Shown: positions 42,603-43,360 of the stretch, in pieces | How the letters are laid out: every line of letters begins with the position of its first letter | How positions within the stretch are numbered: position 1 is the first letter of the stretch | Origin: Escherichia coli | GTDB taxonomy: Bacteria; Pseudomonadota; Gammaproteobacteria; Enterobacterales; Enterobacteriaceae | NCBI RefSeq assembly: GCF_044324875.1 | Contig: NZ_CP172185.1 | DNA length: 64,000 nt | Strand: one strand, 5' to 3' | Position numbers and translations under genes: made by a program | Notes under the pieces: model-generated | Told to the model about the DNA's origin: nothing | Seen by the model: the letters and a program-made list of their open reading frames with translations, nothing else | The model's database searches: none

Positions 42603-43076
42603 ATGTCAGAAAATGAACTGAAAAAAGCAATGTTCATTCAGCAACGATTGCAGATTCTCCACCTTGGTAAACACTATGATGAGTTCAGTGATTCTTACGT
42701 GTATGCCTGGGAGGCAGATGTTTATCCTTTCTTGCAGGATGGCGACGGAAGTATTCCTGCTCGCCCACATGAAATTTACGAAGAGTTTTTCGGCACATCT
42801 AAAAACAAAGCCAAAAAGATATACGATCGTCTGTGCAAAGCCTGGCACGACCAGGAGGCACTCACATTCTATAAACTAGAAAGTGAATATGGTGTAACAA
42901 GTAGCAGCATGCACAGATGGACACGAAGTGATTTACTTCACATCTGCCGCTATCTGTATCTTGAGGGGTGTTTCGATAAAGATTTCTGGGAAACATTACT
43001 GGAAAACGGAAAATGCCCAAGCGAAGCACTTTACCTTAGCGATGAATTTAATCGCGATACAGAGATCGACTTCTAA
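42603..43076 (+). CDS. Hypothetical protein (157 aa) on the opposite strand to the rest of the element; candidate accessory cargo
   Basis: Good SD (aggagg); followed by hairpin terminator; no recognisable motif. Confidence 0.6.
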   Translation: MSENELKKAMFIQQRLQILHLGKHYDEFSDSYVYAWEADVYPFLQDGDGSIPARPHEIYEEFFGTSKNKAKKIYDRLCKAWHDQEALTFYKLESEYGVTSSSMHRWTRSDLLHICRYLYLEGCFDKDFWETLLENGKCPSEALYLSDEFNRDTEIDF

Positions 43077-43111
43077 AAAAATGGCCTGGAAAATACCAGG
43101 CCATTATTATT
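43077..43111. terminator. Bidirectional hairpin terminator between convergent genes
   Basis: ggcctgg-aaaatac-ccaggcc flanked by A-run and T-rich sequence. Confidence 0.6.
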
Positions 43112-43360
43112 CTACCGTTTCACGGGATCACGCATTCTGCGCCTTATTTTCCACAGATATTCGATCATCGCTTCCACCTGCTCACGGTTGGTTGCGAAAA
43201 TTTCCCCGGTCAGTGAGCTACGCAGAAAATCATGATGATCCACAAAAAATAACGCATCGGAAGAAAGCAGCCGGAGATATTTTTTTGCTGTCGTGCTTTC
43301 CAGATCATCAAAATCATGAAGCTTTTTATGTTGCTGGACTTCTTCAAATGTCACTGGCAT
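43112..43360 (-). CDS. Hypothetical protein (~82 aa)
   Basis: ORF with internal start MPVTFEEVQQ...; no recognisable motif. Confidence 0.4.
   Translation of the reverse strand: MPVTFEEVQQHKKLHDFDDLESTTAKKYLRLLSSDALFFVDHHDFLRSSLTGEIFATNREQVEAMIEYLWKIRRRMRDPVKR

Follow-up and report, generated by a model that had tools for sequence, protein, structure and literature searches.

Capsid-forming PICIs (cf-PICIs) are recently recognised, widespread satellites, and the content of their variable regions is hardly described. In P4-like satellites and classical PICIs, hotspots between conserved genes reportedly carry defence systems, as Rousset et al. and Fillol-Salom et al. are said to have found in 2022. 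For cf-PICIs, He et al. named the stretches on either side of the packaging module as variable and 'expected to encode immune systems' (bioRxiv 10.1101/2025.02.11.637232). That a hotspot exists here is thus already known from that work. The anatomy of the slot and its occupants have no description in the cf-PICI literature cited here.

Type II antitoxins are modular proteins, in which a DNA-binding domain is followed by a neutralising or sensing domain. Panacea (DUF4065, PF13274) is a stand-alone domain of about 150 aa, sometimes equipped with an N-terminal DNA-binding domain, which is found on mobile elements, beside unrelated toxin-like partners and also alone (PMC8832971, PMC10440598).

The locus studied here lies in a stretch of 64,000 nucleotides from Escherichia coli (RefSeq assembly GCF_044324875.1, contig NZ_CP172185.1), referred to as the window. 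A cargo gene at 42603..43076 on the plus strand encodes a protein of 157 aa, predicted to be acidic, all-alpha and soluble, whose family had no prior description. This family is new and previously undescribed, and it is located in a known kind of locus.

The host island

From its gene content, the island at approximately 35.3-50.8 kb of the window is classified as a cf-PICI. The assignment was based on the presence of int, an alpA-type regulator, a replicase and genes for HK97-type capsid, protease, portal, head-tail connectors, HNH, TerS and TerL, on the absence of tail genes and on a size of about 12-16 kb. Int, the alpA-type regulator, the replicase and a set of own capsid and packaging genes were all found, and tail genes were missing. 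The gene order was derived from family searches and from the annotation of the related E. coli LH50-c island. The early part comprises the integrase, an alpA-like HTH gene, an Icd-like gene, small ORFs, a RepA-type helicase (44873-46279), SSB, PerC and an 82-aa gene (phrog_1957). From the slot onward, the genes for the HK97-type capsid, protease, portal, head closure, connector, HNH, P27-type TerS and TerL follow. The same architecture was described for the cf-PICI EcCIEDL933 (bioRxiv 10.1101/2022.09.08.507074). The packaging operon begins with the HK97-type major capsid gene (41130..42287, minus strand; TIGR01554, E = 5e-88), which borders the slot region on the left.

The LH50-c island is 100% identical to the window over 1051 bp in the cassette region, and the remaining island is 93-97% identical. 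The chromosomal sites differ: the right flank of the island in the window is tqsA/pntB, and the LH50-c island is located between phoQ and roxA. The preliminary description of the locus had noted that almost all island genes are on the minus strand. This is borne out by the LH50-c relative, where the only plus-strand genes are the 157-aa gene and one small HicB-like gene.

A variable slot before the packaging operon

The slot occupied by the cargo gene is flanked on one side by the replication/PerC operon terminator and on the other by the control region of the capsid operon. The left border of this slot is formed by ...GAACAA-ATAATTTACAAAA, the right border by the terminator and the next minus-strand gene. 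Alignment of related islands revealed at least four states, so the locus is not invariant and the variability in gene content that was to be expected of cargo is indeed present. In the empty state, which is the commonest, a terminator hairpin follows the motif within about 10 nt. The second state contains the 157-aa gene. In the third, represented by the loci L004 and L073, a remnant is left by an internal deletion which retained the promoter, the Shine-Dalgarno sequence and the first 21 codons. The fourth contains an unrelated gene of 168 aa, which belongs to phrog_5789 and encodes a C-terminal hydrophobic helix. The two occupants are not diverged homologs (BLASTP E = 4.6).

These states can be told apart by distance. 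Among 81 IMG/VR loci retrieved by a scan for the exact motif, the next gene is 43-46 bp away from the motif in empty slots, which form the majority, 151 bp in the remnant, 573-574 bp with the 157-aa gene and 597-599 bp with the 168-aa gene. In a megablast search with 42400-43450, 488 of 5426 complete E. coli genomes matched the slot flanks, and only eight of these island-bearing genomes matched over the full query and carry the 157-aa gene. The 168-aa gene was found in 51 genomes. The slot is hereby defined at base resolution, with its borders, its promoter logic and four states.

The slot lies directly 5' of the packaging operon and its content differs among similar islands, as is characteristic of the pre-packaging variable region of cf-PICIs. 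In island type, in slot position and in variable content it resembles the EcCIEDL933-family cf-PICIs. Like the hotspots of P4-like satellites and classical PICIs, it has flanks that are conserved, unrelated genes that replace each other, and self-contained cassettes on the opposite strand. Unlike those hotspots, it contains a single small gene without a known defence domain and is empty in most E. coli islands.

The same position is used in other hosts. In 28 of the 35 IMG/VR loci with close homologs, the gene is in exactly the same cf-PICI slot, and these islands have capsids that are 43-100% identical and three types of replicase. The family is likewise found in the slot in Serratia and Edwardsiella islands. 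Moreover, members are present in a different kind of satellite, a genomic island and defence islands. The 157-aa family is therefore a recurrent occupant of the slot across Enterobacterales that also moves to other elements. It is the most widespread occupant of the slot across genera, with at least 350 clusters and no annotation in any of the libraries searched.

The cargo gene and its expression signals

The 157-aa ORF is a real gene, as indicated by three lines of evidence. All 19 relatives at 52-62% identity, which come from Enterobacter, Serratia, Raoultella, Rouxiella, Edwardsiella and other Enterobacterales, are 156-158 aa long. The gene is under purifying selection (dN/dS 0.04-0.23). 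ORFs in alternative frames have no conservation, by which a hidden overlapping gene or small toxin within the cassette was also ruled out.

A self-contained plus-strand gene with a strong Shine-Dalgarno sequence had been proposed, and both the ORF and its ribosome binding site were recovered. The sequence AGGAGG (42589..42594, plus strand) is located 8 nt 5' of the ATG, and a purine-rich site is found at the equivalent place in homologous loci. Further upstream, the putative sigma-70-like promoter TTTACA-N17-TAAACT (42533..42561, plus strand; 9/12 match) is the sole promoter-like site between 42200 and 43500. A TAnnnT hexamer is present 17-18 bp past the conserved TTTACA in all occupied slots, in lineages of several genera. 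Since this spacing is kept in every occupied slot, it supports the TTTACA/TAnnnT pair as the promoter of the cargo gene. In empty slots, TTTACA and the repeats are kept and the -10 hexamer is missing. Presumably, the -35 hexamer is part of the backbone and the -10 hexamer comes along with the cassette. An Rfam scan of 42200-43450 gave nothing above threshold.

The gene is followed by a predicted two-way intrinsic terminator (43080..43105, both strands) with a 10-bp stem and a 6-nt loop, which starts 3 nt past the stop codon. The free energy of the hairpin is -17.8 kcal/mol on either strand (z = -5.3 on the plus and -4.0 on the minus strand), and none of 200 shuffles folds equally well. It thus agrees with the bidirectional terminator described before. 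It is GC-rich and followed by a U-run, as in intrinsic, rho-independent terminators. The tail is a full T7 on the minus strand and a weaker ATTATTCT on the plus strand. As only 6 nt separate the hairpin from the convergent 82-aa gene and its stop codon, it should mainly terminate the minus-strand early operon. It probably also closes the cargo gene, less ideally. In the window and in about 30 cf-PICI copies, the cargo gene forms a monocistronic unit with its own promoter and terminator. Taken at the level of sequence, the gene runs against the island backbone with a promoter of its own and is insulated by the two-way terminator.

The convergent 82-aa gene (43112..43360, minus strand), to which no family had been assigned before, belongs to phrog_1957 and comes last in the early operon, behind PerC. 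Most E. coli islands have it at 89-98% identity, whether the slot is empty or contains the 157-aa or the 168-aa gene. It is therefore a backbone gene and not cargo.

A family without annotated relatives

The protein had been called an orphan. This label no longer applies, as a profile search of 1.84 billion cluster representatives retrieved 350 clusters at E <= 1e-3 and 236 at E <= 1e-10. Nevertheless, no model in Pfam, NCBIfam or PHROGs covers the core domain. A sequence profile search of the PDB returned only non-significant matches, to an insect D7 salivary protein and to forkhead domains; a solved structural relative was not found, and the BFVD viral structure library gave no fold match. 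The structure and homology searches assigned the protein to no core replication or morphogenesis function, and with the variable slot the interpretation as cargo is supported by sequence.

Most members of the family have about 150 aa, and approximately 20% have 185-225 aa, with an N-terminal extension of about 50 aa. The pI of the 157-aa protein is 4.9, the same as the family median. AlphaFold2 with the family alignment predicted an all-alpha protein of nine helices (pLDDT 89.6, pTM 0.85) with a single beta-bridge and a winged-helix-like sub-domain. When this model was compared with AFDB50 by Foldseek, only uncharacterised members of the family were retrieved (TM 0.69-0.92). These included fusions named CopG/RHH, SpoVT-AbrB and WYL and one protein named Panacea-domain-containing.

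The residues conserved family-wide are P42, A35, W36, F63, F89, E93, R108, L111, R116, Y117, L120, W129, P139, E141 and A142. Apart from E93, R108, R116 and E141, they are structural or aromatic residues, and no catalytic motif is recognisable among them.

Resemblance to antitoxin modules

In about 20% of the members, the domain is preceded by N-terminal antitoxin-type DNA-binding domains (RHH, Phd/YefM, MazE, HTH). The extensions matched RHH_1 (up to nine members), PhdYeFM (three), MazE (two), HTH_43 (two) and Aca2 (one). At least five DNA-binding folds were thus fused independently, three of them hallmark antitoxin folds, which fits the modular pattern of type II antitoxins. This part of the family has its domain behind the same DNA-binding domains as Phd/YefM, MazE/AbrB and the RHH-type ParD, RelB and CcdA. 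Unlike these antitoxins, the protein in the window has neither a DNA-binding domain nor an adjacent toxin. The C-terminal part differs as well, being a folded domain of 150 aa in the 157-aa family and a short disordered tail in modular type II antitoxins.

Some distant members have candidate partners. An AbrB/MazE-fused member is located 17 bp 5' of a gene for a basic 283-aa protein, whose only Pfam match is a weak one to PemK/MazF (i-E = 0.012). A 148-aa member overlaps by 4 bp with the upstream gene, whose product is a basic protein of 175 aa with a transmembrane helix at its N-terminus. On a Microvirga plasmid, a long form is encoded 183 bp 5' of an 'Abi family protein', with DISARM genes as neighbours. 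In two loci, large upstream neighbours were considered as a conserved DUF2971 partner and rejected. The adjacent, co-transcribed toxin that is typical of a type II antitoxin is thus seen only in a few distant members; neither the window nor any of the approximately 30 cf-PICI copies has a toxin gene next to the 157-aa gene. Together, fusions and gene neighbourhoods link the family to toxin-antitoxin and defence biology.

With a little less than even confidence, the protein is tentatively regarded as an antitoxin-like module that acts in trans by binding another protein, without catalysis. It would represent, on its own, the domain that is elsewhere fused behind the DNA-binding domains of type II antitoxins. 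As no partner gene adjoins it in the satellite, it is proposed to be an orphan antitoxin-like neutraliser or sensor that acts in trans. Its role would be in the conflict between phage, satellite and host. For example, it may counteract a toxin or an abortive-infection effector, whether this comes from the host or from a co-resident element, or it may bind a protein of the phage. Such a neutraliser or sensor would be a new module of this conflict and a second example of a promiscuous antitoxin-like domain. Several observations argue against the antitoxin-like reading, among them the absence of a neighbouring toxin gene in the window and in the cf-PICI copies and the lack of kinship with Panacea. 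No neighbour is shared by three RHH-fused members, which adjoin a TerS-like protein, a 114-aa acidic protein and nothing, respectively. The fused forms could be simple regulators with a sensor domain. In addition, the evidence for partners comes from three or four loci, and the PemK match is weak.

The closest parallel in architecture is Panacea. Both have a similar domain size, N-terminal fusions, varied toxin-like partners, solitary copies and a location on mobile elements. Homology was examined with PanA of the Burkholderia prophage phi52237 (YP_863932.1, 157 aa; PMC8832971) as reference, together with collected relatives, all of which are PF13274 proteins. It was rejected, as hhalign against the PanA alignment gave a probability of 0.08. 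The 157-aa protein and 140 scanned members of the family had no match to PF13274, and ordinary Panacea proteins were not retrieved by Foldseek with the 157-aa model. In a single-sequence comparison with PanA, only a local 'AW-x2-G' stretch aligned. Panacea has the motif FEAW-x-x-GPV, of which the conserved GPV is located in beta-2 beside the central helix, whereas the 157-aa family has AW-x2-G-V-Y-P with an invariant P42 and without the GPV signature. The folds differ too: Panacea contains a three-stranded sheet, the 157-aa model one beta-bridge in a nearly all-alpha structure. The resemblance is functional and architectural only, and membership in Panacea is not supported.

A more far-reaching version of the antitoxin-like reading can be formulated, which as a whole is unlikely. 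According to it, the 157-aa protein founds a new partner-swapping, antitoxin-type domain family, analogous to Panacea without kinship in sequence. Enterobacterales cf-PICIs would deploy it in solitary form to neutralise effectors of the toxin or abortive-infection type, or as a sensor of phage proteins, while a helper phage infects the cell, and its expression might respond to the phage or to AlpA. In that case, it would be a satellite-borne 'universal antidote' module.

Defence neighbours and a possible role in immunity

Several relatives have neighbours of the defence type. These are a type III restriction-modification system with a DUF4411/M78 pair, RmrT/RmrA with restriction-modification genes, a short pAgo with REase-APAZ, a TIR-like protein and ParDE. 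In a Raoultella satellite, the family member adjoins the candidate defence gene PDC-S31. A tblastn search of 50,697 phage genomes gave no match to the family, and plasmids had only 4 matches in 72,556. The absence from these phage genomes and from PHROGs argues against a classical phage anti-defence gene and is equally compatible with a defence gene that protects the host.

These observations raise the somewhat unlikely alternative of a stand-alone immunity or interference protein, which would bind and block a structural, packaging or replication protein of an incoming phage. It would be made from the integrated island and directed at non-helper or helper phages, protecting the host and favouring the satellite in the manner expected of cargo in PICI hotspots. 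Such a protein would be at home in a slot that is expected to carry immune systems (bioRxiv 10.1101/2025.02.11.637232), and the layout of the cassette is moron-like, with opposite orientation, own promoter and own terminator. Besides the defence neighbours elsewhere and the absence from phage genomes, the alternative 168-aa cassette also speaks for it, since its small product with a C-terminal hydrophobic helix resembles an exclusion or Abi protein. On the other hand, most E. coli islands thrive with an empty slot, the protein has no effector or enzymatic motif, and Phd, MazE and RHH fusions are typical of antitoxins and not of defence effectors. Furthermore, when the 5027 models of PADLOC-DB v2 were searched, none matched the 157-aa protein or its neighbours at E <= 0.1.

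The earlier suggestion of accessory or defence cargo therefore holds for the accessory part, as the gene is in a variable slot. The defence part gained nothing from the PADLOC search that had been recommended, and the fusions point to antitoxin-like modules. If the gene were a defence gene after all, it would constitute a new system of one gene. Whichever applies, the gene is small, easily cloned and suited as a test case.

Control elements between the slot and the capsid gene

Directly 5' of the -35 hexamer, three direct repeats of GAACAA(C/A) follow each other with a period of exactly 10 bp (42503..42528, plus strand). Shuffling the window 100 times gave an expectation of 0.00 matches to the phased repeat. 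The last GAACAA repeat and ATAATTTACAAAA are conserved across genera. The phased repeats upstream of the gene had been recognised before, and their presence and exact phasing were confirmed. They had been counted with the cassette, to which they do not belong: the repeats and ATAATTTACAAAA are retained in islands with an empty slot and are hence backbone elements. Either the TTTACA/repeat motif has a role in the backbone, or else the empty slots are deletion derivatives. The remnants with internal deletions demonstrate that deletions emptying the slot do occur.

The leader between the slot and the capsid gene contains the imperfect palindrome GTGGCGGCTCACGTCTGAGTGCCAC (42427..42450, no strand assigned), which is nearly invariant in 14 of 16 lineages. 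In the variant of the window, pairing is preserved by double changes, and the palindrome folds no better than shuffles. It is considered a putative regulatory element of the backbone that is conserved across genera. Toward the capsid gene, AAGATATACAT is another conserved backbone block.

The placement of the gene, divergent to the capsid operon and beside the conserved repeats, the TTTACA hexamer and the palindrome, together with the winged-helix-like sub-domain, would also fit a DNA-binding regulator. The protein could bind the shared control region, or the activator that uses the GAACAA array, and thereby tune the late packaging genes of the island. The recurrence in exactly the same slot across Enterobacterales cf-PICIs and the fusion of relatives to DNA-binding domains are in line with such a regulator. 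However, most E. coli cf-PICIs keep the control elements without the gene, which is thus dispensable for the packaging operon, and the family is also found in non-satellite contexts without a capsid operon. Members that bind DNA seem to need an added DNA-binding domain, and the protein itself is acidic (pI 4.9). A regulator of the island is quite improbable.

Finally, the protein could be one half of a split toxin-antitoxin or abortive-infection pair with its partner elsewhere in the island or genome, as the antitoxin-type fusions, the occasional operon partners and the Icd-like cell-division inhibitor (itself a conceivable partner, like any other backbone gene) and small HicB-like protein of the island might suggest, but this is very improbable, because empty-slot islands have the same backbone genes without the 157-aa protein and no gene co-varies with the 157-aa gene in the loci examined.

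A second GAACAA array

A second array of four 10-bp-phased (G/A)AACAA repeats is present at 49316..49351 (minus strand), flanked by the stop codon of the integrase gene and by the alpA-like HTH gene. By reasoning, the arrays are a poor fit to replication iterons, since the two are 6.8 kb apart and neither adjoins the replicase gene. Integrase arm sites were likewise set aside by reasoning, as the second array is about 1.3 kb or more from the end of the island. Direct-repeat arrays spaced by one helical turn are typical of Cox/Xis/AlpA-type proteins. Given two similar phased arrays, one DNA-binding protein may serve both sites, which is a lead and not a result. As the array recurs near the alpA-like gene, it may be speculated that expression of the 157-aa protein follows the state of the island or of the helper phage. 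The second array was found in 5 of 13 related IMG/VR loci of sufficient length.

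Cargo turnover in the variable slot

The variable slot of the capsid-forming PICI (cf-PICI), located between the early-operon terminator and the capsid operon, is occupied in the window by the gene of a 157-aa protein (42603-43076, plus strand). In two related loci, L004 (about 2700-2790) and L073, only a deletion remnant of this cassette is found. The promoter, the Shine-Dalgarno sequence and the first 21 codons are retained and run directly into the final few nucleotides of the gene, followed by the terminator. A cassette shortened in this way shows the cargo in the course of being lost. 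L071 (IMG/VR contig 2681813004_000015) carries the 157-aa gene in intact form and, about 1.1 kb further on, the slot once more, this time with the deletion remnant. Either the slot has been duplicated locally, or the contig is a chimera in which assembly joined two islands of one genome.

The slot can also be filled by another gene, encoding a 168-aa protein (phrog_5789) with a hydrophobic helix at its C-terminal end (L003, 2997-3503; L005, 2995-3501). Among complete E. coli genomes, 51 carry this alternative occupant, and it also occurs in 12 IMG/VR loci. It shares the TTTACA border with the 157-aa cassette, and its terminator is near-identical.

Conserved elements in the capsid-operon leader

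The leader of the capsid operon contains an imperfect palindrome (window 42427-42450). The form GTGGCGGCTCACGTCTGAGTGCCAC is nearly invariant among cf-PICIs from several genera, and the variant in the window, GTGGCCCCAGCGTCCTGGCACCAC, carries double changes which preserve pairing. The adjoining block AAGATATACAT is likewise conserved. Possible roles for the palindrome are those of operator, RNA element and packaging signal. On the minus strand, the capsid ATG as annotated is directly preceded by a hairpin with a T8 tail (window 42288-42325; -14.1 kcal/mol, z = -3.5). This hairpin resembles a terminator placed between the control region and the capsid gene, but other island lineages do not conserve it.

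Second repeat array and early-gene region

The island carries a second phased array on the minus strand (window 49316-49351), consisting of four (G/A)AACAA repeats with a 10-bp phase. On one side of it is the integrase stop codon (49408), on the other the alpA-like HTH gene (about 48845-49033); TATAAG and a terminator-like hairpin follow the array. Its sequence is nearly identical to that of the three GAACAA repeats upstream of the 157-aa gene (42503-42528). Counterparts were found in 5 of the 13 long related IMG/VR loci and in the LH50-c island, a related E. coli island at another chromosomal site. In the stretch from the small early genes to the HTH gene (47282-48521), the window is about 740 bases longer than the LH50-c island, and the Icd-like region occurs a second time within the extra sequence (47703-47971).

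The 157-aa family beyond the island

In Raoultella planticola (L006, 5800-10500), a homolog of the 157-aa protein is carried by a PICI-type satellite of a different kind, sitting inside a prophage. This satellite encodes int, AlpA, AntA and a DUF927 primase, as well as tail-fibre and tail-fibre-assembly genes. Directly upstream of the homolog, a DUF2971 protein is encoded, which matches the PADLOC candidate PDC-S31. Within the 157-aa family, the nearly invariant Trp36 is replaced by Arg in P0001, the representative of a cluster of 82 E. coli sequences.
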